Shown here piece by piece: positions 41,701 to 64,000 of a DNA stretch of 64,000 bases. The stretch's first letter is position 1. Each line of letters begins with the position of its first letter. The notes under the pieces were generated by a model that did no database searches, had not been told where the DNA came from, and worked only from the letters and a program-made list of their open reading frames with translations. A program made the translations under genes and the position numbers. The stretch is from Chrysemys picta bellii. Its lineage: Eukaryota. The stretch spans positions 2,046,001-2,110,000 of the forward strand of contig NC_088812.1 in NCBI RefSeq assembly GCF_011386835.1, read 5' to 3'.

Positions 41701-44700
41701 TGACTGGATCCCCAGAATCTGTCCAGTGAGTACACCCTTTATTCCACTATGGGTCCTGGTGCAGATTGGAATCACCTGTCTGTTGGGCAGGGACTTGTTT
41801 CTGAACTTTAAGCTCAAATCTTCAGAACTTCCTTTGTTTGCGCTGCCTCTCCTCCCTCACGGACAAACCACTGCCAACGGCTCTCGCTGTCACCTGCCTT
41901 CTGCTGTGTTGTCCTGGGGGTTCTGCTGCTGTTTGGTGGTTTTCTTCTTGGGAACTTTCCCTGTCTTCAGGGAGGACAAGGGCCTTATAGAGTTAGTGGG
42001 AAGAGAGACACCCTGAAAAAAATTCATAACCCTTCCCTTCCCCTTTCCAAAAAGTGAAATTCTGAGTGGGAGGTTTGCAAGCATAGGGTCTCCTGCCCCA
42101 TCATTAGAAGGGACTGTTAGCCTCTTGCCTTGAGCTGGGCAGTTGACAGCGTTCGGCCATAGGACGCTGCCGGTCTGGGGTTCTGGCCACAGGCCCCGCT
42201 CAGCCTGCTGCCGGCCTAGGTGAACAGAACCCCAGACCAGCAGCGGGCTGAGCGGGCCGGGGGCGTAAGATCAACATTTTAATTTAATTTTAAATGAAGC
42301 TTCTTAAACATTTTGAAAACCTTGTTTATTTTACAATACAACAATAGTTTAGTTATATAGTCTATAGACTTATAGAGAACATTAAAATGTATTACCGGCA
42401 CGTGAAACCTTAAATTAAAGTGACTAAATGAAGACTCGGCCCAGCACTTCGGAAAGGTTGCCGACCCCTGGTTTATAATCATGGAGTTAGGGTGTGGCAA
42501 TTGGGCCTGGCTTCTTGGCAAGGAATTGCTATCCTTGACTGAACAAACCCCTTCTGGAATGCGCAGGGCTAGACAGAAACCTGCGCAGTGTTATCTGGGC
42601 TGTCCAAGTCTTGGGACTTGGCATGGTGCGATGGGAGCTCACGGAGGGAGGCATCCTGGAAGGGAGCTGGGTGGGCCACTGCAGTACCAGGGCCTGGCCT
42701 GTGTATTGCATTATTAGTCTGAGGTGTACGAAGGGCTGATAGGTGCGCACACCCTCTCTGCTCACCACCATTGCTGGCTTTTTCTTTCCCCTCGCAGGAA
42801 GGCAAAAATGATGCTGGATGATATCGTGTCGCGGGGTCGTGGGGGGCCACCTGGCCAGTTCCACGACAACGCCAACGGGCAGAACGGCACAGTGCAGGAA
42901 ATCATGATCCCGGCTGGGAAGGCAGGGCTGGTGATCGGCAAAGGGGGAGAGACCATTAAACAGTTACAGGTAAGGGCTGGGAGCCTCCCAGGCTGAGGGG
43001 CAGGTGGACAGAGAACTCCTTGTGGTTAGAGCAGGGGGCAGTGCACCAAAGCTGCCCCTTTTCCCCTCACTTAGCAATTTCCTCCTGTCTCGTTAGCTCT
43101 CCCCGCATTGCGGCTCAGCCCCCTCTAGCAAGGTACCTTTGGTGGCCTCTTCATCTCGAGCATTGAAAGGCTTGTGCTCTAGGGCCAGTCTGATTCCTTC
43201 CGAAATTCTGGTCATTCACTAATGTGGGGTGTCCAGCTGTGCCCTGTTAGCTCAGGTGGGGTCCCTGGTCATCTCTTCCTCAGGAGACTCCGGAAAGGCC
43301 ATATAATGCCCCTAAGGCCCTGTCTATGCAAGAGGGGTTATGTTGGTGTTGCTCCACCACTCTAAGCTGGGCTTGGCACCCATCTAATTTACCAGAGTAA
43401 GTCGCTCTTGCAAGCCCCAGTTTGTACTGGAGCAACCCTGTGCAGACTTCCCTAGTCTAGATAAACCCCCAGGCAGTCTTTCTTAGCTGCCTCCCTGGCA
43501 TCTCTGGAAAAGTGCAGCAGGACCAGAGCGACACTGAGTCACACATGCATCCACCAGGGCACGGGGAATCCTGCCTAAGTCGGCACGTGTTCAGAAGGCT
43601 TCCCCACTGGAAGGGCTAGGAGTGTAACTCAATAGAAGCCTAAAACCCCGGAGATCCCAAAATCTACAGGTAGGGGCTTGTGCCCTCGGCAGTGATGGTT
43701 CCAGGGCTGGTCTCCACTGCCAAGTGCCGTGTCTGTGATGGAACCAGGGCTCACGACACGAGCTGAATTGTTGGGTGAGTCTCTTGAGACCAGGGTGAAG
43801 CTCCTGGAGTTGGTTAGTGGGGACATCTGGTCCCTTCTCTTTCCCCTGTCAGAGCTCAGGTCAGCGTAGGCTGTGGCAGGTGCGTAGCATGCTGGAGAGC
43901 CGCTGGAGAGTTCCAGCTATCGACTTGCCCAACCCCTGGCTGATTTCTTCCAATCTCCTCCACCCCAATGCAGGAGCGAGCTGGAGTGAAAATGATTTTA
44001 ATTCAAGACGGTTCCCAAAACACCAATGTAGACAAGCCTCTTCGGATAATCGGAGACCCCTACAAAGTCCAGGTAGGTCCGGCTGGCTCACTCTAGTGGG
44101 AGTGTGTGTATGTAACTATCTGTGTGGAGAGCGAGGGCAGGAGGTTGACTGACTGCACTGTTGCCCGATTTCCCCGTGGAGAAGGCTTGTTGTGGATGGT
44201 ATAAGGTGGTTCTCGTTACGTGTTTCCTTTATTGCAGCGGCTCTCAACCTTTCAGACTATTGTACCCCTTTCAGGAGGCTGATTTGTCTTGCGTACCCCA
44301 AGTTTCACCTCACTTAACTGCTTGCTTACAAAATCAGAGAGAAAAATACAAAAGTATCACTGCCCGCAATTACTGAACAATTGGCTACGGTTTCCTTTTA
44401 CAGTAGAATTATGAAATAAATCAATTGGAATATAAATATTGTACTTGCGTTTCAGTGTATAGTCTATAGAGCAGGGTAAACAAGTCCTTGTCTGTATGAA
44501 ATGTTAGTTTGTTCTGACTTGGCTGGTGCTTTTTCTGTAGCCTGTTGTAAAACAGGCAAATCTCTAGATGAGTTGATGTATCCCCTGGAGGACCTCGTGT
44601 ACCCCTGGTTGAGAACCTCTGCTTTAGTGGTCAGTGGTTGCGTCTGACGAAGTGGGTATTCATCCACGAAAGCTTATGCTCCAATACATCTGTTAGTCTA

Positions 44701-47700
44701 TAAAGTGCCACAGGACTCTGTTGCTTTTTAGTGGTCAGTGGTTACCTGCCTTAGGGCCATTCTGAAATGAACTACTTTGGCTCAAACCTTATAAATATCC
44801 TAGTGAGTCTCTTTGATCTCTCCAGAATGCTTTACGCATTCAGAATTGCTTCACACACACATCTCCCCCAGTGAAACCACTCTGGGTCCAACAGTACAAC
44901 TTTGTTTAGGACAGGAAGTGAATACTGAATAGTGTCTGCTTGAGAGGAAGGTTGGGCTTGTGGTTAAAGCACCAGGGTAGGAGTCTGGAGACTTGGTTTC
45001 TAGTCCCAACTCTGCCTCTCCACTTGCTGTGACACAGCGATGGACGCCTTGCGAGAACATGGACAAGTTGTATTTTCTATTTCCCCAAAACTACACTTAA
45101 ATGGGGTGTGGAAATGAATTTGATGTAAACTTCGGAGCTCCTCAGGTGGTGAGCACGGTACAGGTATAAACGTGTACTGACATTATTAAATTAAAGCAGG
45201 ATGCCTGGGTTGTAGCAGACACTGTATATCCTTGGGCAGTTTGACCTCTGTCTGCTTATACCTCCGTCAAAGGAGGCTGAATATACCTGCCACACAGCTG
45301 GAGTGGATGTTCTGCTAGTTCTAAATCCCTGAGATCCTCTGTGAACAAGTGCAAAGCAGGCGCTATGCTGCAGTGGCCTAATAGTACCTGCATGGCTAGT
45401 GAGAAAGAACGGAGGGCAAATTTGGGAATTGCCCAGCCGTGGCCAGGAGACAGGGAACAGCTGTGTGTGCCTGAACTATCCAACATGGCTGGGGGTGTGC
45501 GTGTCACTCGTGGCTCTTCGCTGGAGCGGCATTGTTCCCAGCCCTCGGTAGCTGCTGTGGGACCACTGGGATCCTTACCGGGACCACTGGGATTAAAGTT
45601 CCGTAAGCTAGCTAATGGTCCCCATGTATTTAAAGAAGGAATTCTTGGCTGGGTGCCCCATGGCCCATGCGAGCCTCAGTCAGTACTGCTTACTCTGGGA
45701 GCCAGGCCTGCAGCGTGGGGGTCACTGGTTCCCTGGGCTCACGTTGCTGTTTCTTGTTCGCAGCAAGCATGCGAGATGGTGATGGACATCCTGCGAGAAC
45801 GTGACCAGGGAGGCTTTGGTGACCGAAACGAATACGGTTCCAGGATCGGTGGAGGAATAGATGTAAGACCGATTTAGCACATTAGTTTAGGGGAAAGTCT
45901 GGTTCTGTCAAGGGAGGCTGTTACATAGTCTGACAGCAGGGGGCAGCAGTAACCAAACAAAACCTTGGGCCTGGTGTCCTAGGAAATTACTTCCTAGGTC
46001 TTAGCCGTGTTTCCTGTTCTCCAGTTAATTTTGCTCTTGGCCCTTGCTCAGGTCCCTGTGCCCAGGCATTCTGTCGGGGTGGTGATTGGCCGTAGCGGAG
46101 AGATGATTAAGAAAATACAAAATGATGCTGGAGTTCGGATACAGTTCAAGCAAGGTCAGAAGCCTAAATAGCTCTCCCCTTCCCCTTCCCCAGAGAATCC
46201 TGCCAAACCCATCACCTGCATGGCTAAGCGCCACGATTCTTATCTGCCAAAAACTCCGCCTGGGTGGTTCTGCGCACAAGTTCCCTTGGGTGTCGATATT
46301 GTAACTTGCATCATTCAGTGATCCCTTCAGAGTACCTCATTCATATCCGCACCATACTAGACTTTTTTGGGGGGCAGGGAGGGTATTTTTCCTGAAAACC
46401 AATAAGACAGATTGTTTTCCTTGGAAAAAATCTCTAGAATTGCCTATCCAGTCTCTCGCCTGTGGGTTAAGGGGTCAGGAAGGAATTGTCTCCCCCCCCC
46501 ACCCCCCCATGAGTGCAAATAGCCCAGTGCATTATCCAAAGTGGGATGGGATGGTGGCCACCTTCTGAAGCAGCAGGTATCAGCCACTTCCAGAGGCGGA
46601 TAACCTGGCTTAGGGAGCCAGTGGTTGCCCTTGAGTGGCAAATCCTGTGCTCTGAGCAGTTTAATGGAGAGAACTTTTATGCATAGAGCAGATTTCACTC
46701 AAGAGGTTAACTTCCCACATAGCTTAAACATACTACTTTAGCCATCTGCTTCTTCAGGCTGATTGGACATGTCACCTGCCCTTCCACCCACTGATCCTGT
46801 GTTAATGAAATGGGCACCATGCCTGCGTAAAAGGCAGACGAAGCCCATTTTAGCATGGGCTCGTCTGCTGCTAATGCCAAGTGTTCTGGGCCTGGCGCTT
46901 GTCCAGAGCCCTTGTCTCGAGGAGTCGGGCACGGCAATGGGGACCTCGCTTTGTTAAGCTGACTCCTGTGCTTGTTTCAGATGATGGGACAGGTCCTGAG
47001 AAGATCGCCCATATTATGGGGCCCCCAGACAGGTGCGAGCATGCTGCCCGGATTATAAACGACCTCCTGCAGAGCCTTCGGGTAGGTAACACTGGGGTGC
47101 CCTAGGAGGGGCTGACCCCACCCAGTGGGTTCCTTAGTTGGTGAATAGAGTGATTCAGGGAGACGGTCTCAGAACGAGACCCACCATGGGACAGGTTACC
47201 CTGCTGCTGTGGGGTTCTTCCACCTTCCTCCAAAACCTTGGGGGTTGCGTCTGCTGGGATACTGGGCTAGGCTGGCCTCAGGTCTGATCCAGTCTGGCTG
47301 TCCGGGTGTTCCTTTAACCAACACAGGAGTCTTAAAAAGAGAACCAGTGCCGCCACTTTTCTGCTGTGTGATGTATAAGGGGGCCTGAGGAGTCAAATTC
47401 CTTCCTACTTATTTCTAGATTTAAAAACCAATCAGGACTGTGTGGTCTTCCCTGGTTTTGGCAGACCCGTGGGAGATAGCAGCTCTGTTTATTGCAAGCT
47501 CTTAACACTTTAATTGAAAAGCTGAGTGTTGCAAATTAGGGTTCTTTTTAATCAAAATGTTAATTAGGTGTTAACAGAAACACTTACATGGTGACTCAGG
47601 GCATGACCACAGTAGGGGAGCTACAGTGTCACAGGTGTAGCGTCTTAGTGTAGACGCTTCCTACAGTGACCGTTTCTGTGGCTGTACGTAATCCACCTCT

Positions 47701-50700
47701 CTGAGAGGCAGGAGCTAGGTCAACTGAAGAATTCTTCTGGGGACCTAGCCGCTCCTTTGAGGGTTTGGTCAGCATAGCTACAGTACTCAGCAACCTAGCG
47801 AGGTCGAGCTAAATTGTAAGTGTAGACGGGGCCAAGGCATGCTTTACAGGCTCTTTACTGATTTTTAACTATTTCAGGTGTCCTTATTTCTTACTGAAAT
47901 AATTATCCCAGTGTAACCCATAGCGTGGATGCTGTTAGGATAACCTTTAGTTCTTATCAATAGATCACAAAGGAGATAGGGAAAGTGAGGTACAAGAAGG
48001 ACTTGCCCAAGGTCACCCAGCAGGGCAAAGCTGGGAAGAGAACCCAGAGCTTCCAAGTCCCTGGCCAGTGCGCTCTCCACTAGACCACACTGCCTCCCCT
48101 TATCTGTGCCTCATACCAGTATGGCTTGGTCCCTTTGTCAGGCTTGACAAAGCCCTGGCTGGGATGATTTAGTTGGGGATTGGTCCTGCGTTGAGCAGGG
48201 GGTTGGACTAGATTCCTCCTGAGGTCCCTTCCAACCCTGAGATTCTATGATTCTTTCCAATAAGGGAATAGCTGTACCAGGAGAACTGCCCACAGTAGGG
48301 GGCAGTGCCACGTTAACTGTACCAGGGCAAACCAATACAAAAAGCTGTACAAAAACAGTTAGCCCACTCCTAAAAATCTGTCCCTCTTAACAAGTAGCTT
48401 TTGCTCTTGTGTTGTCATTAACACGAGCTCTGTTCCCAGCCTTCCAACAGGCAGGACCTGAATTTAGAACCTAAATAACAAGGCAGAAAAATACTTTCTG
48501 AAGGGGCATTTCTCAACCCTTTCAGGATGGTGGCACCTACCTAGATGTCAGATTTTCATGACCACCCTCTAAACCAGGGGTCGGCAACCTTTCAGAAGTG
48601 CTGGGCCGAGTCTTCATTTATTCACTCTTAATTTAAGGTTTTGCGTGCCAGTCATACAGTTTAACGTTTGTAGGTCTTTCTAGAAGTCTATAATATTTAA
48701 CTAAACTGTTGTATGTAAAGTAAGGTTTTTTAAATGTTTAAGCTTCATTTAAAATTAAATTAAAATGCAGAGCCCCCTGGACCCGTGGCCAGGACCCGGG
48801 CAGTCTGAGTGCCACTGAAAATCAGCTCACGTGCCACCTTTGGCACACGTGCTGTAGGTTGCCTACCCCTGTCTAAACCGACTGTAAGAGGGGAAAAAAA
48901 AGTATCGGCTCAAACCTTATAGAATGTGTGTTTGGAGAGGCCGACTGACAATCTGACCTTGAAGGGAGAGGGAGTGAGATTTTCTTGGCTTTCAGTCCAC
49001 GCTCACAACCTGCCCCCAAGTGACCGCTCTTTGTGCGCTCTGGGGCTCAGGACCTGGCACATACCTGCTTTTCCTCCCTCAGTGGGTTGCTTTTAAAGCT
49101 CAAACTGCCTGAACCATCAGACTGATTCTCTACCCCCCCCCCCCCCCCCCACTGTCACAAGTGCCAAGATGTTAACCGCTGTACTTGGCTGCCAGTGACC
49201 CTTCCCTGAAGCTGTTTCTGCTGTTGTCTTGCAGAGTGGCCCGCCGGGTCCCCCTGGCCCAGGAATGCCCCCTGGAGGCAGAGGCCGTGGCCGAGGGCAG
49301 GGTAACTGGGGGCCTCCTGGAGGAGAGATGACCTTCTCGATCCCTACTCACAAGTGTGGGCTGGTCATTGGCAGAGGTGAGTGTCCTTTGCCATCATACA
49401 GCGGTTCCCGGTGTCTCCCCCGCCGCCGCTCCAGCAGAGCCCGAGCTCACAGCTCCACGCTCTCTTCCAGGCGGGGAGAACGTCAAAGCCATAAACCAGC
49501 AGACGGGGGCGTTCGTCGAGATCTCCCGGCAGCTGCCTCCCAACGGAGACCCCAACTTCAAACTGTTCATCATCCGCGGCTCCCCGCAGCAGATCGACCA
49601 CGCCAAGCAACTCATCGAGGAGAAGATCGAGGTGGGTGCGGGGAGTGCCCCCAGCTTCCACCTACCCCCACAGCGAGGGGGCAGCAGAGCACTGGAGGCT
49701 GACCCGGGGCATCGTGGCTCTCAGCACTTACGGATTATTTCCTCTCTCCAGGGCCCCCTCTGCCCAGTTGGACCTGGGCCTGGGCCTGGAGGGCCCCCGG
49801 GCCCTGCTGGCCCAATGGGCCCTTTCAACCCAGGACCTTTCAATCCAGGGCCACCAGGAGCTCCCCCTCAGTAAGTATTGAAATCTCCTGCCTCTTCGGG
49901 GGGGCGGGGGAGGGAGTGCACGACATGCTGCAAAAAGGTGCTTGTGGGCTGTCTTTAAGGGGGTGGACTGAGCAATAAATCCAGGGGCATCTGGTGGCCT
50001 GACAGGGGCTGCTCCCCTAGTGCCCAGGGAATCCCCTATAGTGTCTAGTGCCCGAACTTTGGACCATCCTTTCAGTCTGGAAGCAAGAAAAAAAATAACC
50101 CTAAGTTCTGCTGAGGAAGCTGCCAGCCAAAGGCCCTGCTCCTCCTGGCCTGTTCAGCCTGCGAGTGCCCCGGGTGGGGAAGATGGGAGACGGGCTAAGC
50201 CTGCAGAGACCTGGTGCCGGAGCTTGATGGACCACAAGCAGGGCTGCAGGGAAGAGTGGTCTTGGGCTTGCCCTTCGGTGGAGGTGTAAAATAGGTGGGG
50301 GTAACCCCACCAGCTCTCCAGTCAGCCGGCCTCTTCCCATCCTCGAGAGCTGTGCAGCACCAAGGAGCCCTGTCACTACCCTGGAGCCTGCCGTGCCAGG
50401 CCCTGCACAAACACAGACCAAAGCCTCCGTCCGTCAAAGGGACCCGCTAAGGCCCATCTGGCTCTTGTGGGCTGCCTGTCCCCCACTGGGGCTGCAGCAG
50501 GGCTCCGAGGACCATGCTTTGGGGAGATGAGCAGGGGGCTGCCCCAGCTGTACAGGGGCCTTCCCACCCTCCCAGTCAGCATGTCCCAGCGGGGTTCTGC
50601 TCCTCCCTCTGCAGTGCCTTCTGTCACCCCTCCTCATCAATGTCTCCTGCTCTCCTCTTTCAGCCCTGGGGCTCCTCCCCCCCACCCATACCCACCCCAA

Positions 50701-53281
50701 GGCTGGGGGAACACCTACCCGCAGTGGCAGCCTCCGGCCCCTCATGACCCAAGTAAGTACCCAGCGCTGCCCCTCGCGAGGGTAGGGTTGGCTCCGGGGA
50801 GCAGGTGGGCGGGCAGCCCTGTTCCCCACATGCTGGCCCAGGGCAGGAGGCGGGGTCTGTTCTCATACATGGCTCCTTTCCAGGCAAAGCAGCAGCGGCA
50901 GCAGATCCCAACGCGGCCTGGGCAGCGTACTACTCGCACTACTACCAGCAGCCCCCTGGCCCTGTGCCCGGGCAGCCACCAGCTCCCACAGCGCCCCCCG
51001 TTCAGGGCGAGCCGCCGCAGCCGCCCCCGGCCGGGCAGTCCGACTACACTAAAGCGTGGGAGGAGTATTACAAAAAACTAGGTAATGCCCTGGGGGAATC
51101 ATTTCGCCTATAGCGGGGAGGAGGGGGCACTATCCCGGGTGAAGAGTGCTGTGCTGGAGGGCAGCAGTGAATCGAGGGGCTCAGCCCAGCTCCTTGTGAC
51201 CCCAGGACTGACGCTGACAGGCCCTACGGCAAAGGCTGAGCCTTGAGGGTCCTGAGGACTGAGCTCCAGAGGCAGGTACCTCTTGCTCAGGGCTGAAGCA
51301 GACTGGCCTGGCCGCACGCATGGGTGGGTGGGTGGGGGGGGTGTTAGTGACAGGCCATGGGCTGATTTCCCCAGCACTGAGCAGTCAGATCTGTTCTGAG
51401 AGGGAAGGTCTCTGAGGTCAGGTGGAGAAAGGAGCATGGGGCAGACCCAGCAAGTTAGCAATGTGCCCCACAGAATCCGTGTGAACTTCCCCAGCCAGAG
51501 ATGCCAGTTCATGCTGGTCTCAACCCCACTAGGCAAAGGGGGCAGTGATACTGCCTGACTCCTCCTCCCTCTCCAGCTGCTCACTCCCTCGCCCACCTGT
51601 CCGGGGTCCCTAATGCATGTCTCTGCCCACAGGCCAGCAGCCCCAACAGCCCGGGGCACCCCCACAGCAGGACTACACGAAAGCCTGGGAGGAATATTAT
51701 AAGAAACAAGGTGAGTGAGGCCTGGAGCTCCTATGGACGGGGGTGGGTGTGTGGATCAGCAAGGAGAGCCCAGCTCCTGTCCGCTGACCATTGGAGACCT
51801 GGGGAGAGGGGTAGCCCTGTGCCCCTGGAGTCACTGACTCACCCCCTCTTCTCTCCCCTGCCCCATCGTAGCAGCTCAAGTGGCTACTGGTGGAGGACCA
51901 GGGGCACCACCGGGACCTCAGCCAGACTACAGCGCAGCCTGGGCAGAGTACTACAGACAGCAGGCTGCCTACTACGGACAGACACCGGGGGCTGGGGGCC
52001 CAGTGCCGCCACCCACACAGCAGGGACAGCAGGTGAGTGATCGGCCATGTGCCCCGCTGCCTGCCTTCAACCCCCAGCTGTAGCTCCTCCTGCCTGGGTG
52101 AGACCCTCGGTCCCACAGGAAGTGCTTCCTGAGCGGCATCTTTGTGCTCGTGCACCGGCTCCCACATCGGTCGTCGACGGGGATTCAACCCAGGACACCT
52201 CGACCTACAAGCATGAGCGTCTACTGCTTGAGCTAAAGGACCCAGTCCATTAGCTGGAGGCAGTAGTAGACTCGTAAACCTCTTCTATGGATCCGCCACT
52301 AGGTGGCAACACAGACCCACGCTGTTCATGTGGATTTACGTTGACCCGTAGACACCTGGGGGGGTGGTCGGAGGAGATGGGAGCTCAGGGAAATGGACAG
52401 AACTGGTAAGATTCTCCAGTTTCCACTGGGCTCTTAGCTCCGGCTCACAGGTCCATTTTCAGGGGCTAGGACTTCTTCGTAGGGTTAGGGGTTGTCTTAT
52501 CCATTGGGGGATGTGGGAGGGATCACTGTTAGCCCTGGTAGTTCGGGGAGATCGGGCTGCAGAGCTGTCGGAATACAGCGAGCGTCAAACCAGGGGAACT
52601 CGTTCAAAGAGAACCTGGGTGCAGATTCCTACGTTTCTGACCAGCTTCTCCTCTCGAAGGTGAGCGCACTCGGCAGCGCTGGACTGAAAGCGGCTGTTCG
52701 CTGACCCAGGGAGCTAGATTAGCTCCCGCTCAGCCTCTAGCCTGTCCTGCTGCAGCTCTCAGAGTCTCGGGCCTAGCGCCAGGCTGAGCAGTTACATTCT
52801 AGGGCCGCAGAAGCCTAAAAATCCGGTTTCAGCCACATTTAGGCACCTGACTAAGTGACTTTTCCAGCAGCACCTGGTGACTTCACTTGGTCTTGCTAGG
52901 GGCTCCGTGCCACTTACTTAGCTGCCTAAATATGCCGAATTTCAAGCAGCCCCCTTTAGAAATGCTTCCCCAGGCCAAGACTTTCATCTGATCTTCAGGA
53001 CTGACCAAAGCTGCTGCTTCCGAAACCTAGATTCTCTTCCAGACTTGACCTGCCAATTTCCCCTTTTCAAACACCCTGCTTCCGTGGTGGGATTTCCTAG
53101 TGTGCAGGGGAGTTGGGAGCCGAGGGCCAGTTTTCCCTCCACTCCCCAACTTGGCAGCGCAGTGCCAGTGCCGTTGCAGCAGAGGGGACCCTGTGTTGCT
53201 TTCGGACTCTTCCGTCCGTAGCGGTGTCTATCAGGGGTAACTGACTCCTGTCTCTCTCCCCGATCCTTGCAGGCTCAGTGA
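32712..53281 (+). CDS. KHSRP: KH-type splicing regulatory protein (FUBP2), 694 aa; join(32712..32912,37843..37939,38526..38564,38893..38932,39512..39561,40853..40924,41668..41725,42798..42969,43974..44072,45764..45862,46052..46154,46981..47081,49235..49376,49471..49631,49752..49870,50664..50752,50884..51081,51633..51710,51875..52032,53273..53281)
   Basis: 20 exons total 2085 nt with consistent phases. Gly/Pro-rich N-terminus ending [15 protein letters not shown], four KH domains with GxxG loops (IGRGG, IGKGG, IGRSG, IGRGG), Tyr-rich repeats ([12 protein letters not shown]), terminal AQ*. Confidence 0.97.
33000..33960 (+). repeat. G-rich low-complexity repeat at the start of KHSRP intron 1
   Basis: Recurrent GTGTGGGTTATGGGGGGAGGGCGGATAAGATGGGGGG units. 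Confidence 0.85.
42270..42470 (-). mobile_element. hAT-type MITE, partial copy (KHSRP intron 7)
   Basis: Ends in AGGTTGCCGACCCCTG, the reverse complement of the terminal inverted repeat of the 48575-48871 copy. Confidence 0.8.
44235..44621. mobile_element. hAT/Charlie (MER5-like) non-autonomous DNA transposon
   Basis: Terminal inverted repeats CAGCGGCTCTCAAC / GTTGAGAACCTCTG. Flanking 8-mers CTTTATTG and CTTTAGTG match 7/8, consistent with a target-site duplication. Confidence 0.8.
44640..44726. mobile_element. Short retroelement insertion (probably a Penelope-like end) with a 17-bp target-site duplication
   Basis: The insert is flanked by TTTAGTGGTCAGTGGTT at 44623-44639 and 44727-44743. 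The family call is from recall. Confidence 0.65.
48138..48253 (+). mobile_element. CR1 extreme 3' end
   Basis: Reverse complement of the 1747-2122 terminus, ending GAGATTCTATGATTCT. Confidence 0.85.
48575..48871 (+). mobile_element. hAT-type MITE (KHSRP intron 12)
   Basis: Terminal inverted repeats CAGGGGTCGGCAACCT / AGGTTGCCTACCCCTG. TCTAAAC is present on both flanks (7 bp of an expected 8-bp duplication). Confidence 0.85.
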
Positions 53282-53984
53282 ATTGAATGTGAACTTCCCA
53301 CCCGTGAAACCCTTTTTGTTTTTGGAAAGAGAGATGGCCGCTGTTGGGGAAGGGAGCCGGCCCCTGGGTCTGATTGCTGGGTTTCTTAGCGGAACCTCGG
53401 CTGCTCCTCCTTCGAGTCTCTTTAAAATAAAAATAAAATAAAAAAATAAAAATAAAAATATCTGAATCCTTCATGTTGAGCCAGCTGTAGAAGATAGCGA
53501 ACTAAAACTGCTGCAAGAACTCAGCCCTCCTGAAACACACGTCGATTTCAGGGTAACATGTTTTTTCTTTTCGTTTTGTTTTTAAAAAAAAATAAATAAA
53601 AAAACTTTACAAGGAGAAAAAAAAATCACTCTGCTTTTTAGTTAGAGTTGGAACATTCCTCGAATAAGGTGTCGGTGTTTCAGATAAAACAACCCCTTTC
53701 CCCCTCCCATTTTCCCACAATTGGGACTGGTCTGTCATGTATTTTGTCTGTTCAAGAGGAAACTGAAACAAACAAAATTGTACGCTCAGTTTTTACTTTT
53801 TACCGCTTGTTTTTAACTTCACAAATAAATGATAACAAAACCTGCCTGTGTCTGCTGGGTGGCGTCTGTCTGTCCATAGGGTTTTGAAGCGGATTGTTCT
53901 CATGATATAGCTGTTGTAAAACCTGATGAACTAGGAGCTCCTGTGGTTTTTTTTATAGTTTGAGCAGGCAATTGTGCTTTGTTA

Positions 53985-53990
53985 AATAAA
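53985..53990 (+). terminator. Probable distal KHSRP polyadenylation signal
   Basis: AATAAA followed by a T/GT-rich tract (TTTTTGTTTTG) about 700 nt after the stop codon. Confidence 0.6.
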
Positions 53991-55907
53991 ATGCTCTTTT
54001 TGTTTTGAAACCAACTCTGCTGCACTGTTTCCAAACCGAGCAACTGGCGATACGGTGCGCCCTGGGTACGGTCTGTTACGGGGGGCTTTAGGCCGGTGCC
54101 CCTCAGCGGGGTATCTGGCCTGTTGAGCTGAGGTTACCTCATGGGGTAAGGAATCACTTCTGCTGCCCGTTCTGAGGAACCAGTGGCGCTGTGCTCGGTC
54201 CATTCAATACCTCTGCTCTCTGAGCAATCCCAAAGGGCTGTAGTTTCACCTCTGATGCAGTGGGAATGGACCTGCCTAGGTAAGGCCTTAGCTGGCCCTA
54301 TCTGTGTAGTACCTGAACACCTCCCACTCATCCCTGTTAGACCCTACACCCCCCTGGGCGGCAGGGCAGAGCTCTGATCCCCACTGGAGGCGCAGACTGT
54401 GACATGCCAGATTCCTCAGGGGTCAGACCTTGCACCTGGTTTCCCCAGTCGTAGGCTGATGCCCTAAGCACTGGACCCTCCTCTGCTTACAGCCAGATGA
54501 ACCTCCCTCGGCTCGGACTCTCCGGCTCGTGCAGGAGGGTTGTCCAAGCAGATGAGTGTGAGGGGGACCCGTTGCTTCCCTGACTTGCTCTGGAGGGTCC
54601 GGGTAAGACACTGCTCCCATACAGCGAGGGCTGGAGAGCGCTGGCTATCAAAAGCAGCTTTGGAAAGGTTCTTTCCCATCCGCCCACTGGACAGTCCCCT
54701 GCTTGGGGTGACGCAGGGGGAAGCCTTCCCTGGAACCAGTTCCTGTGTCACCTCTGCTAGCCTCCCTGTTCTGCCCAGCCAGCTTCAGGGGCAGCTGAGG
54801 GGAGAGCTTGGCATAAAGCCCAATTTCAGACTGATGCAGATGTGGGGTTTTTGCCAAGCCCCTAGTAGCTAAATCCCCCCTGGAGTGGAGTGAGAGTCTC
54901 CCAGGGAGGGAGAATGAACCCTCGCCCGGGCAGGAGAACTGTTCTCCTCGTGGGGCCTTGCGTTCCAGCTCTCCCCAGGCACTCTGCCCACAGGCAGACC
55001 AACCTGTTGCTGGTATATTTCCCCCCCCCCCCCCCCCCCTTTAACCTGTGACTTGTGCTGAGTGTCTCTCTCCCCCTCCCCCTTGCTGTTGGCTTTTAAC
55101 ACTCAGCTCTGTGTGACCCGTGTGTGTTGTGGGGACAGCGTGTTTCTTTCAAAAGCTAACCTCTGTCCAAAGCTGGGGCCTGGCTGGGGCTCTCCTCACT
55201 CACATGTAGCTGGGTTTGAAGTCACGTATTGGAAAAACCAAAGGACTTCTGGTAATAAACTCCGTGTTTTGATGGATGCTCCTTGTCCCCTCAGAAGAAC
55301 CCTCCCCACTCTCCAGCCCGGCTGTCTCGTGTCATGCAGTCCTGCTCCTCTGAAGGGGGCTGATGTGGAAAGGCGGAGGGCTAATTCAGGGGTGGGGGGT
55401 GCAGCAAAAGGATGTTCCTGTACCTAGTGTGTAGGGAGTTAGGGGTTAGGCCAGGAGGCTGGTGAGGGAACTGGCTGCACTAGACAGCAGAGCAGGGAAT
55501 CACACCCTGCGGGATTTGCCCAACTCAAAGCAGCCAGTAGGGTGGAGCTGTGGCCATCTCCCCTCCCTGGGGTAAGGAGGGTCCCGGAGTCATTCGCTCT
55601 CTGCCCTAGGCCAGACCCATCTTCCTGGCTCCCCTGCTTGGGTCAGATACTTTCCTTGTCCACAAGGCCCTGGATTCCTGCGGGCGGGTTCTGTGCAGCT
55701 GGGCCCCTGCCGCGCTAGGCACCTTGGCTGCTTGTGTAACTACATCCTGCGGCTGCCTGGCTGGGGATGGGGAAGGGATCTGCATGTGGTGTCAGCTCTG
55801 GGCCAGCAGAGGGTGCTCACGCCCTAACCTGAGCCCCATGGGGTTGGGTGGGTGCAGAGGGCCGCCTGGCGTAGGGCAAGCGCAGGGCCCGGGCCCAAAG
55901 CTGAGCT

Positions 55908-55913
55908 TTTATT
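55908..55913 (-). terminator. Polyadenylation signal of the adenylate kinase-like gene
   Basis: AATAAA on the minus strand about 52 nt past the TAG stop. Confidence 0.7.
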
Positions 55914-55965: not shown

Positions 55966-58900
55966 CTAGCGGAGGCTGTCGATGACCGAGCAGCACTTTG
56001 CGAAGATGGTGTCTTCCGGCTCCTCGCCAATAATCTGCAGGACACAACAGAGCAGCTGGGGGGAGCAGCCCATGCCATGGGGCCCGGCCAGCCCCCAGCT
56101 CTATTCCCCTGCCCCTGGCATGAGTACCCGCCCCCTGGGAAACTTGGGTGCGCCTGTGCTGGGGGCAGGCAGCACTAGCCCTGCTCAGAACCGCTGGGTG
56201 GTTGCAGCTTTCGGGCAGCCCCGGCTGACACTGAACTCCTACGCGGGCTCGCTCTGGCCCTCTCCCCGCCCCGAGGGGCCTGCCCACGCACTCAGCCCCT
56301 GGAGGATGTTTCCACGCGCCTGGTGAGCGGAACCCAACATCCTGCTAACCCGGGGGTGGGTGAAGCTGTTGGCAGAGGCTGTGCCAGGGAAGGGGCCCTA
56401 ACCCCTAGTTCAGAGGGGCAGGGCTGCCTGCAATGGGCTCTGCTGGGAAGGGGGAGGGTCTGTCTCGGGCCACCCCCCACCTACGTTTCTGAGCAGGTTC
56501 TTCTGTTGGTAGTAGCTGATGACGGGCTCGCACAGCGAGTAGTGAGTCTCCAGCCGCTGGCGGATGCAGCTCTCGTGGTCGTCGGCCCGATGGCCGGTCT
56601 GGCCCCGCAGCAGCAGCCGCTGGATCATGGTCTCCGTCGAGCAGTCCAAGACGATCACGAAGTTGGGAAGACGCCCCACCTGCGGCATGGTAACGCCCCG
56701 TTCAGGGGGGCAGCAGCACCCGGACAGGCTGCTCCCTGGCCAGACACCGGAGGGGGGAGCTGAGGAATGGGCACCAGGACGTTCCCGTGCAAGGCGAGAG
56801 GATGGGGTGGGGGCAGAGGCCCTGGAGAAGGGGGAGCCGGGCCAGTGCCAGCCCATGACGGAGCCCTCCTGGGTCTGAGTTAGGGAAGGGGGGAGAAGTG
56901 GCTGCGTCTCCAGCATGTGCTCAGCCCCTCTGAATGCCTCATGCTGCCTCCCACGTGCCACATCTACCTCCTGGGTGTCAACACAGCCCACCCCCCGCTC
57001 TGGCCAGGGGCTGCTGGGCCTTCCTCCCCCCGTGGCACTTACCACGCGCTCAAAGTCCTTGGCCTGGTTGAGCTCCCGGGGGAAGCCATTGACCAGGAAA
57101 CCCTTCGCCTCCTCTCTCTGCAGCAGGTTCTCGTTCAGCAGGTCGAGGACGAAGCCCTGGGGAGACAGGAGCCCCCTCAGCGCTGGGGGGTAAGGGCTTT
57201 GGCCGGAGCCACCCCTGGCTGCGTGAGCAAGCGCCCCACCTCCCCCTGCCCACGAGCCTCCGGCTCCAGGACTCCAGACCCCCACTCAGCTCCTGGCCTC
57301 TCCCAGGTGCCTGCTAGTGGGGCGGGCCGAGCCCCAGCAAACCTCTTCCACCAGGCACCAGCTGGGCCGGAGCCAGAGCGGGGAAAGGAGGTGGGAGAGG
57401 GATGAGCGGGGCTAGGTATGGCAGGGGGCAGAGCCGGGAGCCTGGCACTTGCAGAGGGTGGTGAGAGCCAGCGGGCGGCTGATCCCTGCAGCCCGGGGGA
57501 AGGCTCTCACACTCGCAGGGCTCTTTTGCAGCCTTGGAACGTTTCTCAGGGCCCCTAGGAAGGGCCAGGTGCTGAGCTGATGAGTGGGAGCTGGGGGTGC
57601 TGCAATCCGGAAGGGAGGGAGGGAGGGGAGCCTCACTGAAGGCACGAGCGCTCCTTTCAGCATGATGTCCTTGATTTGTCGCCCCTGGCGCGTGGGCTCG
57701 CTGGCTTCCGCCCGCAGCAGGTTCCCCATGCCCAGGTGCTGGAACTGGTACTTGGCAGCCAGCCTCTCGCACTGTGTCCCTTTGCCGGAGCCTGGGCCTC
57801 CTATCACGAAGATGATGATTTGCGACTTCAGCATCTCTGCGGCGAGAGACAGAGGTTGGGCAGGGGAAGGGGTGAGACAAGCATCTCCCAAGGCGCATTG
57901 GACAAGCCTGATGCTGCGCAGTTTGAGGAGATCCCAGCCCAGAGTGGGGTGGCTGTGGGCACAAAATAGGCACGATTGCTGCTGCTCGATGGGGAAAATA
58001 AGCTAAGGGGAAGGGACCTGGCATGCCCGGCAGTGGGTACTGAGCTAGATGGACCTTGGTCCGGTCCAGTGTGGTAACATCCCCATCTCAACCATGCAGT
58101 AGACATCAGCTCCTGAAAACCCTCGTTAATTTAGTGCGGGGCTGACTGCCCTGGAGCCTCCTCTGTAAGTATCCCACTACTGCCACCAATGTGCTTCAAC
58201 CCAGCCCTGGAGAGACCCCTCTTGTGGCAAGCTCGCTCTCTGTGGCCCACCGCCCACCCCCATAAGGGGCCCATTAGGTGGATTTGGGGCTGTCCCCATT
58301 AGGAACTAGAGTCGCCACGCTGGCTGATGGGAGTCACAGCTTGAGCCCCTCTGGTGTCAATGCCCAGGAATGGCAATGGTAGAACCAGGAGCAGAATTTG
58401 GGCCAAGGCCTTTCAGTCACTGCCAGCTGTTACAAAGCAGCCACCTCGCTGGGACCTGCCCCCGTGAGCAAGGCCTCTGAGAAAAGCCAGGGTTAAAATG
58501 CCTGCTGAGCTGTTTATAAAACAGGGGGTTTGGTGTGAACCGGCCACCCCATAAATCGCATTCAATCATTCTCTAGAGACATCTCTACTCTGTACAATGA
58601 ACAAGCAGCCGGGGCAGTTAGGGGCTCCATAATGCCCCTCAGCTACCACGAGGGGCCAGATAAGAACACAGATGGGAGAACCAGCTGAGCTCTGTTCATT
58701 TCTAGCCGGGATAAATCGGTGGAGGAGCCGGGCCTGACCGTAAACCTGTGAAGAGAGCCCCTAGAAAACCCAGCCCAGCCGCTCCAGCGCAGTCGTTTGA
58801 AGCTACTGAGTGGTGTTCTTTCTCCAAAGGAATTTAGTGCTGTGAACAGGCTTGGGCTGGTAACCCAGGGCTCGGCATTTACCTATGCAGACACGCTGCG

Positions 58901-59598
58901 CTGCCGGCACTCGCTGCCACATGCACATCCCCTTCCCTGGCCCAGATGGACACACACACACTGCCACTCCATGTGCACCCATCTCCTCCCTCGGACTTTC
59001 TGCGCCAAGCAGGGAATGAGTTTTGATCATCACCCACGGGAGCTGGATTCCAGGTGTCGAGGCCGGGCTGGTGGGTTTCACCCCCCAATGCTCCCTTCGA
59101 GCCAACATCCAGCGTCCCTAGTGCAGTGAGATCAGGGTACGCCCCGGACCAGCGTCTTCCCCCTACATCCCAGCCAAGCTAAAGTGCTGCTAGCAAATAT
59201 GCACGGTTTTCCTCCTGGAGCCAAACGCCTTCTGTTGACCTGCTGGCCGAAGCAAGAGTTCCCGGAAGAGTCATCCGGTAACAAGACAGCAAATTAAAGC
59301 CTCCATCAGGGCCCAGCATCTCCATTGCTTGGGCGGATTTGTCCCTTCCCAGCCTTCTCTCAGCTCTAGAGACCCCACTAGACCCCACTCCCCTCCCAGA
59401 GCTGGGAATGGAACCCAGAGCCCTGGCTCCCTGGGCTCTAACCAGCAAGACATACCCACCCCTTCCTACATTTTGATGCCCCTGAAAGCACAGAAAGCCC
59501 CACCCCGCCATGTCCCCAGAGCCAGCTCGCCCTTTACCCTGCAGTTCAGGATTCAGAGGCTTGGCAGTTTTAGGAAGCCGGGCCTGGCAGAGTCCCAT
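55966..59598 (-). CDS. Single-domain adenylate kinase-like protein (AK1/AK5 family), 212 aa; complement join(59538..59598,57637..57836,57043..57156,56485..56679,55966..56034)
   Basis: P-loop IFVIGGPGSGKGTQC, GALVP, GFLVNGFPRE..Q, short LID RLLLRGQTGHRADD...RLETHY, C-terminus SVIDSLR*. Splice sites are GT-AG with consistent phase (639 nt). The four downstream exons are secure; the first exon (MGLCQARLPKTAKPLNPELQ, strong Kozak, phase-1 donor) is inferred. Confidence 0.85.
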
Positions 59599-60055
59599 CT
59601 TCCAGGGCACAGACCGTTCCCCCGCTGCACTCCCTTCCCGGGGGGCCCCCCCAAGGTGCTGGCCTGGCCTGCAGCCCTCAAGCTCCTGTGGAAAACTAAT
59701 CTGGCCATTTTAGCCCGGGCCCTGCTGCTTAGCCGGATGGGCTTTCTGATGTCACAAGGCAGCCAGGCGCTGGCCTGTCGCCGAGGACAGGAGCAGCTGA
59801 GCGGGTGCCGGGATGCGCGGGGGCGATTCCAGGCGGTGCTGGGAGTGGGAGGAGGCCGGAGCACGTGGCCTAGTGACCCGAACGATAGAACCAGGACACC
59901 TGGGACCCCTCCCAGCTCGGCGACTCGCTGGGCCTCAGTTTCCCCCAGGGGAGGGGGCTAGATTCCCGGCTCCGAGATGTCCGGACGGGCCGAGTGACCC
60001 CGTCTGCCCCCCCAGACTGCGGGCAAGAGGCAGGAGAAGGGCCCAAGGAGACCCA

Positions 60056-60960
60056 CCCCTGGGGGCGACGGGCCCCGTCCTCCCCTCCCCCCACCCCTGG
60101 GGGCGACGGGCCCCGTGCCCCCCCTTCCCCCACCCCGGGGGGTGACGGGCCCTGTGCCCCCCCCTTCCCCCACCCCTGGGGGCGACGGGCCCCTGTGCCC
60201 CCCCTTCCCCACCCCTGGGGGCGACGGACCCCGTGCCCCCCCCTTCCCCCACCCCGGGGGGCGACGGACCCCGTGCCCCCCCTTCCCCCACCCCGGGGGG
60301 TGACGGGCCCTGTGCCCCCCCCTTCCCCCACCCCGGGGGGCGACGGGCCCCGTGCCCCCCTTCCCCACCACTGGGGGCGACGGGCCCTGTGTCCCCCCCT
60401 CCCCCCACCCCGGGGGTCGACGGGCCCTGTGCCCCCCCCTTCCCCCACCCCGGGGGGCGACGGGCCCCGTGCCCCCCCTTCCCCCACCCCGGGGGGTGAC
60501 GGGCCCTGTGCCCCCCCCTTCCCCCACCCCTGGGGGCGACGGGCCCCTGTGCCCCCCCTTCCCCACCCCTGGGGGCGACGGACCCCGTGCCCCCCCCTTC
60601 CCCCACCCCGGGGGGCGACGGACCCCGTGCCCCCCCCTTCCCCCACCCCGGGGGGCGACGGGCCCTGTGTCCCCCCCTCCCCCCACCCCGGGGGGCGACG
60701 GGCCCTGTGTCCCCCCTCCCCCCACCCCTGGGGGCGACGGGCCCCTGTGTCCCCCCCTTCCCCCACCCCTGGGGGCGACGGGCCCCTGTGTCCCCCCTCC
60801 CCCCACCCCGGGGGGCGACGGGCCCTGTGTCCCCCCTCCCCCCACCCCTGGGGGCGACGGGCCCCTGTGCCCCCCCTTCCCCCACCCCTGGGGGCGACGG
60901 GCCCCTGTGCCCCCCCTTCCCCCACCCCCGGGGGGCGACGGGCCCTGTGCCCCCCCCACA
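60056..60960. repeat. GC-rich minisatellite, about 39-40-nt unit, about 23 copies
   Basis: Unit approximately CCCCCCTTCCCCCACCCC(T/G)GGGGGCGACGGGCCC(C)TGTG. C-rich on +, G-rich on -. Confidence 0.97.
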
Positions 60961-61259: not shown

Positions 61260-62050
61260 GCAGGGGGGCTGAGGGAGGCTGGGGATATGGGTCACTAGGG
61301 TAGGGGTGGGGGGAAGGTGGCTGGGAATGGGGGGCTGGAGGGGAGGGGTCACTAGGGGTGGGGGAGGGAGGCTGGGGATGGGGGGGAAGTGGCTGGGGCT
61401 GGGGGGCTGGTGGGGGAGGGTCACTGGGGTGGGGGAAGGTGGCTGGGAATGGGGGGCTGGAGGGGAGGGGTCACTAGGGGTGGGAGAGGGAGGTTGGGGC
61501 TAGGGGGGGAAGTGGCTGGGGGTAAGGGTCACTGGGGTGGGGGAAGGTGGCTGAGGATTGGGGGATGGTGGGGGAGGGGTCACTAGGGGTGGGGGAGAAG
61601 GAGGTTGGGGCTGGGGGGGAGGTGGCTGGGGGTAAGGATCACTGGGGTGGGGGAAGGTGGCTGGGGATGGGGGGCTGGTGGGGGAGGGAGGCTGGGGGTA
61701 AGGGTCACGGGTGGGGGAGGGAGGCTGGGGCTGGGGGGCTGGGGGGGAAGTGGCTGGGGGTAAGGGTCACTGAGCTGTGGGAGGGAGGCTGGGGATGGGG
61801 GGCTGGTGGGGGAGGGAGGCTGGGGGTAAGGGTCACTGGGGTGGGGGAAGGTGGCTGGGAATGGGGGGCTGGTGGGGGAGGGAGGCTGGGGGTAAGGGTC
61901 ACTGAGGTGTGGGAGGGAGGCTGGGGATGGGGGGCTGGTGGGGGAGGGAGGCTGGGGGTAAGGGTCACTGGGGTGGGGGAAGGTGGCTGGGAATGGGGGG
62001 CTGGTGGGGGAGGGAGGCTGGGGGTAAGGGTCACTGAGGATGGGGGCTGG
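61260..62050 (+). repeat. G-rich degenerate tandem repeat in the probable GTF2F1 5' UTR intron
   Basis: Recurrent GGGGTAAGGGTCACTGGGGTGGGGGAAGGTGGCTGGG and GGGGGGCTGGTGGGGGAGGGAGGCTG blocks. Confidence 0.9.
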
Positions 62051-62581: not shown

Positions 62582-63750
62582 ATGACCTCCCTGGTAAGTT
62601 CTCAGTTTCCTCTAAGTCATTGTAGGTTTGGGAAATGTGCCCTGTCTCCTTGGCCTAGACTGATACCCATCTAGTTCGGGATCCAGTCTCCGAGTGACTC
62701 GTCCTGAGTGTCCCAGAGGAAGCTGCCAACCCCTCATCGCCTGTCAACTCTTCTTATGTGAAAATCCCTCCCTGACCCCAGCTAATGCCCTGAAGCAAGA
62801 GGACAGAGAGCCCTTATTAATTTCTCCCCCTCTCCTGTGTCCCCGACCGTGATCGGGGAGGGGAACTCCCTGACTAGCCCTTGGGTACCGCACACCTCTG
62901 AAATGAAACCTCACTCTTTGTTCTCTCCCCAGGGCACGAGTAGCCAGTCGGTTACAGAGTATGTGGTGCGAGTACCCAAGTGAGTCCTTTCTCTCTGATT
63001 TCCCAGCCCTCTCTGCCCACGCGGCGCCTGGCTGAAAGCTCATCTCCCTGGGGAAAACAGACAGCCACAGTTTAAGATGTCAGAGCGGAGGTGGGGGAGT
63101 GTCCCCTGCATTGCTGGGTCAAATCAAGCTCAGGTCACTGTTCTCTGACAACGGATGAACTGAGCTGTAGGCCTCGGCCCCTCTCCCTGGCTATCCAGCC
63201 TCTGGTTTGTTTGATCTAAACACTATGCTTCCTGCTGAGCCCGAGGCCACGTCTCTTTGGAGTATTATGGTGATTCCCCAATTGAGATCAGGGTCCTGCC
63301 CTGAAGAGCTTGCAGTTTAAATAGACAAAGGGTGGGAAGGGAAACTGAGGCACGGCGCGGGACTGTGGTTTGCCCAAGATCACCCAGGTGCGCAGGGCAG
63401 GGAATTGAGCCACGCCGCCTGTTGTATCGGATCGATCCTACTGCACCCTGTGGTGGGTTCAGTACAGAGACGGGGGCCTGACAGGGAGGGGGGTCGGGCA
63501 GGGCTGAGGCCTGCTGGCAGCAGGGATTGGGTAGCCCTGCTGCCCGGGTGCGATTTGCTGTGTGGCTAGCGAGTGCTCGGCATAGTGCCAGGCTTCCAGC
63601 AGGGGGTGTGGGGATGTCACTCACTCCTCGAGCTGGAGCTGCTGGCCGCTCAGGTGTCTGCCCTCCTCTTGCTGCAGAAACACACCCAAGAAGTACAACA
63701 TCATGGCCTTCAACGCCGCCGACAAGGTCAACTTCACCACCTGGCACCAG
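62582..63750 (+). CDS. GTF2F1: General transcription factor IIF subunit 1 (RAP74), first three coding exons; join(62582..62593,62933..62979,63678..63750), continues beyond the window
   Basis: MTSL|GTSSQSVTEYVVRVPK|NTPKKYNIMAFNAADKVNFTTWHQ matches the RAP74 N-terminus. GT-AG sites with consistent phase. KHSRP is its neighbour, as in human. Confidence 0.95.
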
Positions 63751-64000
63751 GTAGGATGCCCCCGAGCCCCACATGGCCAGGGCAGCCTGCCCGCTGCTTG
63801 GAGGCACTGCCAGGTGCCGGAGCTCCCTTAGCGCTGACGGCCTGGCCACTCCAGCGGGGTGGATCGATAGTTGTGACTGCATCTGGGGCCGGGCCTGGCA
63901 GCAAGGCTAGAAATACTGGGCACAGCGCCCCCCCCATAATGCACTGGACCACAGGGCAGCCTCTTGCTTCCCCACCATGCTGGGGAACACATCTGGGCCC

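Follow-up and report, generated by a model that had tools for sequence, protein, structure and literature searches.

The stretch of DNA considered here, called the window, comprises 64,000 nucleotides of Chrysemys picta bellii (GCF_011386835.1, contig NC_088812.1, positions 2,046,001 to 2,110,000 of the forward strand) and carries on its minus strand a gene of the adenylate kinase family lying tail-to-tail with KHSRP and head-to-head with GTF2F1 (Table 1). The gene is real, spliced and a distinct paralogue within the AK1/AK5 family. Joined by coordinates, its five coding exons give an intact open reading frame (ORF) of 639 nt encoding 212 aa with a single terminal stop, and all four introns are bounded by GT..AG. 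A preliminary description made from the sequence alone had proposed such a five-exon ORF between KHSRP and GTF2F1, with a P-loop, a nucleoside monophosphate (NMP)-binding region, a short LID and its own AATAAA; all of these are present, and flanking exon motifs were found for both neighbours. The product is separated by 3 differences in 212 residues from two RefSeq entries named 'adenylate kinase isoenzyme 1-like', one from Emys (P0011, which matches PF00406) and one from Malaclemys (P0167). The predicted structure, with a predicted local distance difference test score (pLDDT) of 85, matches AK1 in Foldseek (E=1.6e-20) and superposes on human AK1-Ap5A with a template modelling (TM) score of 0.84.

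Structure and splicing of the turtle gene

Splicing was assessed in public sequencing contigs. Among 24 runs listed, 18 held the stretch or part of it and contigs of four runs from four studies were examined; no run was recorded as RNA, a blank was counted neither way and contig depth was not used for expression or tissue. Contigs of run X6, from a related species, skipped all four predicted introns, with two skipped in run X1 and two in run X4. The joint between exons 1 and 2 (57836/59538) was seen in X6, that between exons 2 and 3 (57155/57636) in X4 and X6, that between exons 3 and 4 (56677/57041) in X1 and X6 and that between exons 4 and 5 (56034/56485) in X1, X4 and X6, all with CT..AC ends on the plus strand as a minus-strand transcript predicts. 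The contigs of run X5 showed none of the four joints, which tells against the gene model but was not taken as absence. The preliminary description had looked to junction evidence, and all four introns are spliced out in public contigs. The 5′ leader reaches upstream to at least 60008 (X6 contig 59538-60008) with the start of GTF2F1 about 1 kb beyond. In run X6 the pieces of exons 2-4 differed from the window at 4 of 513 nt compared with 48 of 1433 nt in the intron-1 piece (Fisher p=0.0012), and the two exon changes with listed positions were both synonymous, one of them falling in codon 110 with Asn retained. The GC content at third codon positions is 0.83 as against 0.57-0.69 for the introns.

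The exon breaks had been described as lying after LVPS, after ERV and after the LID and as resembling those of the C-terminal kinase domain of AK5 (AK5-C). The first two positions hold, while the last break falls some 30 residues past the LID (after LLRN). The resemblance itself is not diagnostic, with alternative AK1 models sharing the phase-1 start and the IVRK-equivalent break at the last junction, and the exon breaks were rejected as evidence for AK5 over AK1. The exon sizes at these breaks are common to AK1 and AK5-C.

Table 1. Features of the kinase gene and its surroundings in the window
Feature	Position	Strand	Description
Coding exon 1	59538..59598	-	61 nt, phase 1; MGxC N-terminal extension
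Exon 2	57637..57836	-	200 nt; P-loop (Gly33 at 57801, Lys39), NMP-binding region; Met57 in place of AK1 Thr39; Arg62 (=AK1 Arg44)
Exon 3	57043..57156	-	114 nt; Asn110 (codon 57090-57088), Arg114 (=AK1 Arg97), Gln118 (=AK1 Gln101)
Exon 4	56485..56679	-	195 nt; short LID; Arg146, Arg150, Arg156, Asp158, Asp159, Arg167 (=AK1 Arg128, Arg132, Arg138, Asp140, Asp141, Arg149)
Exon 5, coding part	55966..56034	-	69 nt; Cys-Cys pair and stop
AATAAA polyadenylation signal	55908..55913	-	52 nt past the stop
KHSRP	40855..55259	+	KH and C-terminal repeat exon motifs (40855-51937); AATAAA at ~55254
GTF2F1, first coding exons	62583..64000	+	exon motifs at 62957 and 63691
GC-rich 40-bp tandem repeat	60052..60956		22.9 copies; between the divergent 5′ ends of the kinase gene and GTF2F1
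G-rich 66-bp arrays	61303..62046		in the first GTF2F1 intron
Interspersed repeat fragment	59374..59418		in intron 1; high-copy, matched by many unrelated contigs

An ATG in the leader at 59708 was rejected as the turtle start, being out of frame in the window where it would give an overlapping upstream ORF. In two other turtle models, those of Gopherus and Terrapene (P0012, P0013), the equivalent ATG is in frame and lengthens the protein by 37 residues, behind which Gly2 would be hidden. Contigs of runs X1 and X5 skipped a plus-strand GT..AG intron that overlaps exon 4 and runs from 56321 to either 56512 or 56515, and this spliced product is a candidate antisense transcript or a candidate KHSRP read-through across the kinase gene. 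A scan of the window for mitochondrial-carrier motifs gave no match.

Orthologues and relation to AK1 and AK5

Orthologues were sought by word-index searches with exon 2, P0011 and a newt sequence and by one profile search, in which invertebrate or protist proteins with several domains made up most of the best 150 of 1011 matches at 1e-30. They were found in reptiles (turtles, alligator, tuatara, lizards and snakes), in amphibians (three salamanders and three caecilians) and in mammals (monotremes, marsupials, afrotherians, xenarthrans, carnivores, bats, perissodactyls, rabbits, lemurs and one gibbon), those of rodents including rat, Mus caroli and a partial Mus musculus model. The matches listed included no orthologue from birds, frogs or ray-finned fish, the searches being too shallow to claim loss, and the ESM Atlas returned generic AK and UMP-CMP clusters only. 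The databases label the orthologues AK1, AK1-like, AK5 or nucleoside-diphosphate kinase. Across amniote orders they are 57-75% identical, with 64% between turtle and horse and 55% between turtle and newt, while AK1 of eagle and bat share 84%. In the lizard Pogona, RefSeq models P0039 and P0040 fuse the start of ALKBH7, a neighbour of GTF2F1 in human, to the kinase, suggesting that the two are adjacent there.

Exon 3 is skipped in nine orthologue models (from a marsupial, primates, a bat, rodents, aardvark, a lizard and one unnamed), giving an in-frame form that lacks the equivalents of Asp93, Arg97 and Gln101 of AK1. In the single gibbon model Gly, Gln and Ser stand at the positions of Arg44, Arg132 and Arg149 and residues ahead of the LID are deleted, from which the gibbon copy is predicted to be dead; the skipping of exon 3 alone was rejected as proof of its decay, being seen in nine models. 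The preliminary description named an uncharacterised AK1-like human locus, LOC390877 (XM_017026805), as probably lying at the KHSRP-GTF2F1 position; the gibbon model, the only one from an ape among the orthologues, is degenerate.

The relation of these genes to AK1 and AK5 was examined in a tree of C-terminal kinase domains with 46 rows (19 of 65 domains omitted as near-duplicates or, in four cases, as long-branch teleost AK5-C, together with a mis-cut Lampetra row), in a second tree of 27 rows with three teleost AK5-C restored, in approximately unbiased (AU) tests on 28 rows and in a 16-row tree of the N-terminal half. In the 46-row tree the 17 tetrapod orthologues formed one clade (100/97) and all vertebrate rows were grouped against tunicates and other invertebrates (100/99). 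The tetrapod clade was placed together with AK5-C and a third lineage of sharks and coelacanth, here termed paralogue X, against AK1 in both trees (99/97 with 46 rows, 98/96 with 27). In keeping with this, AU tests rejected the union of the tetrapod clade with AK1 (p=0.012) or with tetrapod AK1 (p=0.0009) and of the amniote members with amniote AK1 (p=0.0002), so that the earlier claim of a distinct paralogue stands: the gene does not fall within AK1 and groups with AK5-C. In both maximum-likelihood trees it was placed outside AK5-C, although its union with tetrapod AK5-C was not rejected (p=0.22). The turtle protein scored 212.6 bits on the AK1-type model TIGR01360, below the cut-off of 284.1 that was exceeded by Xenopus AK1 (330) and Mandrillus AK5-C (332), and 159.9 bits on the UMP-CMP model TIGR01359 (cut-off 207.6).

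The N-half tree resolved three lineages, AK5 (99/97, 10 rows), paralogue X (97/95, 3 rows) and long AK1 (90/58), indicating that a two-domain gene was present as three paralogues in jawed vertebrates. Two-domain models of paralogue X were found in Mustelus, Carcharodon and Latimeria and of AK1 in Xenopus and Lampetra. Over the N-half, paralogue X shares 66-73% identity with AK5 but 53-58% with long AK1, and placing the coelacanth sequence inside tetrapod AK5 was rejected (p=2e-6). On its sequence, paralogue X is the natural candidate for the orthologue of the tetrapod gene and likely to be so, though unproven: short forms starting MG[NI]C make up 3 of 6 models, and the same exon 3 is skipped in a coelacanth model (P0423); joining the two was not rejected in AU tests (p=0.48, 0.40). 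The long AK1 models of Xenopus (P0370) and Lampetra (P0264) carry an AK5-like dimerisation domain and a first kinase domain, with the MG..C exon of AK1-beta located between the halves of the frog model; these models may represent genuine long forms or the merging of neighbouring genes. The 'ak5l' of fish may correspond to this N-half.

The genomic setting bears on when these lineages separated. AK5 lies near FUBP1, and AK1 on the FUBP3 arm. In the supplement of Lamb 2021 (PMC8040251), as far as it was available, FUBP3, FUBP1 and KHSRP are quads A, C and D of paralogon 9 with the quad topology ((A,B),(C,D)), DENND1A/B/C and SLC25A25/24/23 follow the same pattern, and the curated ohnologue table has KHSRP as the sister of FUBP1 from the second round of whole-genome doubling (2R). 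The part of the supplement searched gave no match to AK1, AK5 or GTF2F1. The 46-row tree agrees with a duplication after the tunicate split and with the topology (A,(C,D)) (100/99; 99/97), under the long-branch caveat given below, while the third paralogue in sharks and coelacanth would, if orthologous, put the duplication before the split of sharks from bony fish, the union of this paralogue with the tetrapod clade being unsupported. From the quad of KHSRP and these locations of AK5 and AK1 the tree expected is (AK1,(AK5,kinase gene)), which matches the tree found. The kinase gene is thus likely the 2R sister of AK5.

On this reading two kinase domains and a dimerisation domain would have been encoded by a single ancestral gene, which would also have carried an MG..C acylation signal in an internal first exon. 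The first doubling would have separated AK1 from the line of AK5 and the kinase gene, and the second AK5, beside FUBP1, from the kinase gene, beside KHSRP. Sharks and coelacanth would then retain both long and short forms of the paralogue likely orthologous to it, and tetrapods the short form only.

A number of results weigh against this origin. Uniting the tetrapod clade with AK5-C (p=0.41) or, on the 27 rows, with tetrapod AK5-C (p=0.22) was not rejected, and the union of the tetrapod clade, paralogue X and AK1 was rejected only at the borderline (p=0.0495). The grouping of paralogue X with the tetrapod clade is itself unsupported, at 92/69 for the sharks with coelacanth outside and as a polytomy in the 27-row tree, and AK1 evolves slowly and the others fast, such that long-branch pull could create the grouping with AK5. 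An alternative is that the gene is a younger duplicate of the 3′ half of AK5, made in lobe-finned fish or on the tetrapod stem, with its KHSRP location due to chance and paralogue X separate. The p value of 0.22, the missing frog, bird and ray-finned orthologues among the matches listed and the equal identity of the newt protein to AK1, AK5-C and paralogue X (49-53%) fit such a copy, but it would call for one more paralogue, a fourth, and for an insertion that reached the right paralogon by chance. Moreover, the tetrapod gene shares its MG[NI]C first exon with shark and coelacanth paralogue X, an exon that occurs in none of the AK5 models compared, AK5-C including that of teleosts forms one clade excluding the tetrapod gene (94/93, 27-row tree), and uniting the amniote members with AK5-C was rejected (p=0.010), making a younger copy very unlikely. 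The preliminary description of a third genome-duplication paralogue is therefore borne out in its KHSRP paralogon, its grouping with AK5-C and its standing as a real and distinct member of the AK1/AK5 family, while the genome-duplication date is likely but unproven, a later copy of the AK5 C-half not being rejected (p=0.22).

Active site, N-terminus and predicted activity

The turtle protein has equivalents of the P-loop Lys, of Arg44, Arg97, Arg128, Arg132, Arg138 and Arg149 and of Asp140 and Asp141 of AK1. Among 59 tetrapod models these are kept in 57 (Lys21), 57 (Arg44), 58 (Arg97), 59 (Arg128), 56 (Arg132), 57 (Arg138), 55 (Asp140), 58 (Asp141) and 56 (Arg149). Two other positions of the active site have changed. 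At that of Thr39 all 59 models have Met, Leu, Ile or Val, while Thr or Ser is present in 8/8 AK1. At that of Asp93, the residue that anchors Mg (Asp84 in E. coli), 36 models have Asp, 12 Asn and 10 Glu, with one missing. By group, 10 of 13 turtles have Asn, 10 of 13 squamates have Glu and 23 of 26 mammals have Asp, and mustelids have gained Asn separately, given that seals keep Asp. In addition, the Gly that follows the P-loop Lys, unchanged in all eight AK1, has given way to another residue in 17 of the 59 models. Neither the altered active site nor the acylation-type N-terminus figured in the preliminary description.

Because of Met57 for Thr39 and Asn110 for Asp93, the turtle protein is predicted to have low turnover as an adenosine monophosphate (AMP) kinase. 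ATP and NMP would be clamped by the retained cage of Lys39 and Arg residues. Met57 would cost one hydrogen bond to the AMP base and Asn110 would weaken the positioning of Mg, leaving the turnover of AMP low and the acceptor preference possibly shifted. In human AK1 the T39V change gave a specific activity of 19.5 as against 110 and R132Q gave 0 (PMC3537612, available part). In E. coli, whose Asp84 was matched to AK1 Asp93 by its spacing to Arg88 (=Arg97), the partial text of PMC11313852 gives a kcat of 1.8 against 330 per s for D84A, a figure for Ala and not for Asn, which is the milder change. Against a slow enzyme stand the retention of Asp93 in 36 of the 59 models, so that low turnover fits the turtle lineage better than all tetrapods, and the N-terminal domain of AK5, which has Val at the Thr39 position. 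That domain is active, and a change of Thr39 thus need not cripple the enzyme.

The N-terminus is conserved, with Gly2 in 26/26 and Cys4 in 24/26 full-length amniote orthologues in the alignment. Of the 59 tetrapod models 38 begin with MGxC, most of the remaining tetrapod ones being 5′-incomplete or alternative, and so do 3 of the 6 models of paralogue X. Similar MG..C starts of the AK1-beta type occur in AK1 models of frog, dog, bichir and Umbra, and AK1-beta is myristoylated and membrane-bound according to the available part of PMC2680645. The conserved MGxC together with this precedent leads to the prediction that Gly2 is myristoylated and Cys4 palmitoylated. Met1 would be removed and the doubly acylated enzyme would dock on the membrane like AK1-beta. 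Against this prediction, Cys4 is absent from two of the 26 full-length orthologues and the turtles have Ala at position 6, a weaker context for myristoylation than Ser. Towards the other end of the protein, the Cys-Cys pair at 204-205 is invariant in 26/26 amniote orthologues, with one Cys in amphibians, and is a possible second acylation or redox site.

Taken together, we hold with slightly more confidence than doubt that the gene is the third vertebrate member of the AK1/AK5 group, likely the 2R sister of AK5, encoding a membrane-anchored NMP kinase that acts slowly and locally and is not a bulk recycler of AMP. Other readings differ chiefly in activity. The protein might be a near-dead membrane-anchored nucleotide binder, a pseudo-enzyme or sensor, in which the phosphate-binding cage is kept and turnover is not needed. 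AK4 is a precedent, being described as inactive yet nucleotide-binding in the available part of PMC2680645, and the replacements of Asp93 in turtles, squamates and separately in mustelids, of the Gly after the P-loop Lys, the loss of Asp93, Arg97 and Gln101 from the nine exon 3-skipped models and an evolution faster than that of AK1 all point in this direction. The nine catalytic Lys, Arg and Asp residues are however kept in 55-59 of 59 models, Asp93 is kept in most mammals and even E. coli D84A retains its 1.8 per s, and we regard a pseudo-enzyme as unlikely.

It is quite unlikely, in turn, that the protein is a fully active membrane isoenzyme whose acceptor site was retuned to cytidine monophosphate (CMP) or deoxy-NMPs by the hydrophobic replacement of Thr39. 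That the replacement is fixed in 59/59 models makes it look selected, and UMP-CMP kinases also lack Thr here (Ala in 3/3). Swaps at Thr39 and Leu66 shift AK1 towards CMP and UMP, which counts for retuning. On the other hand, amniotes retain the adenine-pocket residues Gln101 and Leu66, the score on the UMP-CMP model is below its cut-off and Asn110 should reduce any Mg-dependent transfer in the turtle. The gibbon model, with its lost equivalents of Arg44, Arg132 and Arg149, shows that the gene can decay, but for the turtle copy a pseudogene is refuted by the intact frame, the spliced joints, the constraint on its exons and the conservation across amniote orders, and the probability of a pseudogene or chance exon set is negligible.

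A 2026 review counts nine mammalian adenylate kinases, AK1-9, in its available part (PMC13437342). The literature search, with most subscription journals and preprint supplements outside its coverage, found no description of the gene and only gene-list mentions of LOC390877; the gene belongs to a known enzyme family and is annotated in databases but undescribed. A bolder statement, which is tentative and as a whole rather doubtful, would be that a tenth adenylate kinase gene of vertebrates has been overlooked, one that is sister to AK5 through 2R and is dead in apes though intact in rats and mice. Its product would be a nucleotide sensor or non-AMP kinase, doubly acylated and located at a membrane, and AK1, AK5 and the kinase gene would be ohnologues descended from one two-domain gene that had an internal acylation exon, each of the three retaining a different part. 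If true, this would explain the relation among AK1, AK1-beta and AK5, and the loss in apes would be a candidate unitary pseudogene. A tenth gene that is intact in rodents, horses and bats, and that databases often label wrongly as AK1 or AK5, could mislead annotation, proteomics and the interpretation of knockouts, and is directly testable in mouse. The lineages also offer a natural series of catalytic loss or retuning at the Thr39 and Asp93 positions, from shark (Thr/Asp) through mammal (Leu/Asp) and turtle (Met/Asn) to the degenerate gibbon.

Comparison with known kinases

The turtle protein resembles AK1 and AK1-beta (PDB 1z83, 2c95) in its single short-LID domain, its 45% identity, the TM score of 0.84 and the catalytic Lys/Arg set, and AK1-beta in the N-terminal exon of 18-20 residues with MG..C joined in phase 1, as in AK1 of frog, dog, bichir and Umbra. 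It differs from AK1 in being a separate gene and clade (AU p=0.012) below the TIGR01360 cut-off, with the acylation-type start as the main annotated form. Besides Thr39 to Met and Asp93 to Asn, Ser38 is replaced by Gly and Asp41 by Asn, and no intron interrupts the P-loop segment in turtle exon 2, where the AK1 and shark paralogue X models imply one.

AK5-C (PDB 2bwj), to which the turtle protein is 47% identical, is the closest named lineage in both trees and shares with it a relaxed evolution and a Cys before the LID helix. In contrast to AK5, the tetrapod gene is single-domain, without the dimerisation domain and the first kinase domain, and it has retained the LID Arg/Asp residues, which are often missing from AK5-C (Arg138 is present in 2/7). 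In AK5-C itself, LID and AMP-site residues are lost in bird, frog and some rodents, and that of teleosts lies on a very long branch.

UMP-CMP kinases of the CMPK1 type share the fold (TM 0.75-0.82) and the absence of Thr at the acceptor site but are 30-35% identical, and the turtle protein keeps the AK-type Gln101 and Leu66 and has Met57 where UMP-CMP kinases have Ala. The shark, ray and coelacanth paralogue X (P0396, P0402, P0404-P0406, P0424, P0432, P0435), the third gnathostome paralogue, has short MG[NI]C forms like those of the tetrapod gene and differs from it in keeping Thr39 and Asp93 in 6/6 models and in the persistence of two-domain models.

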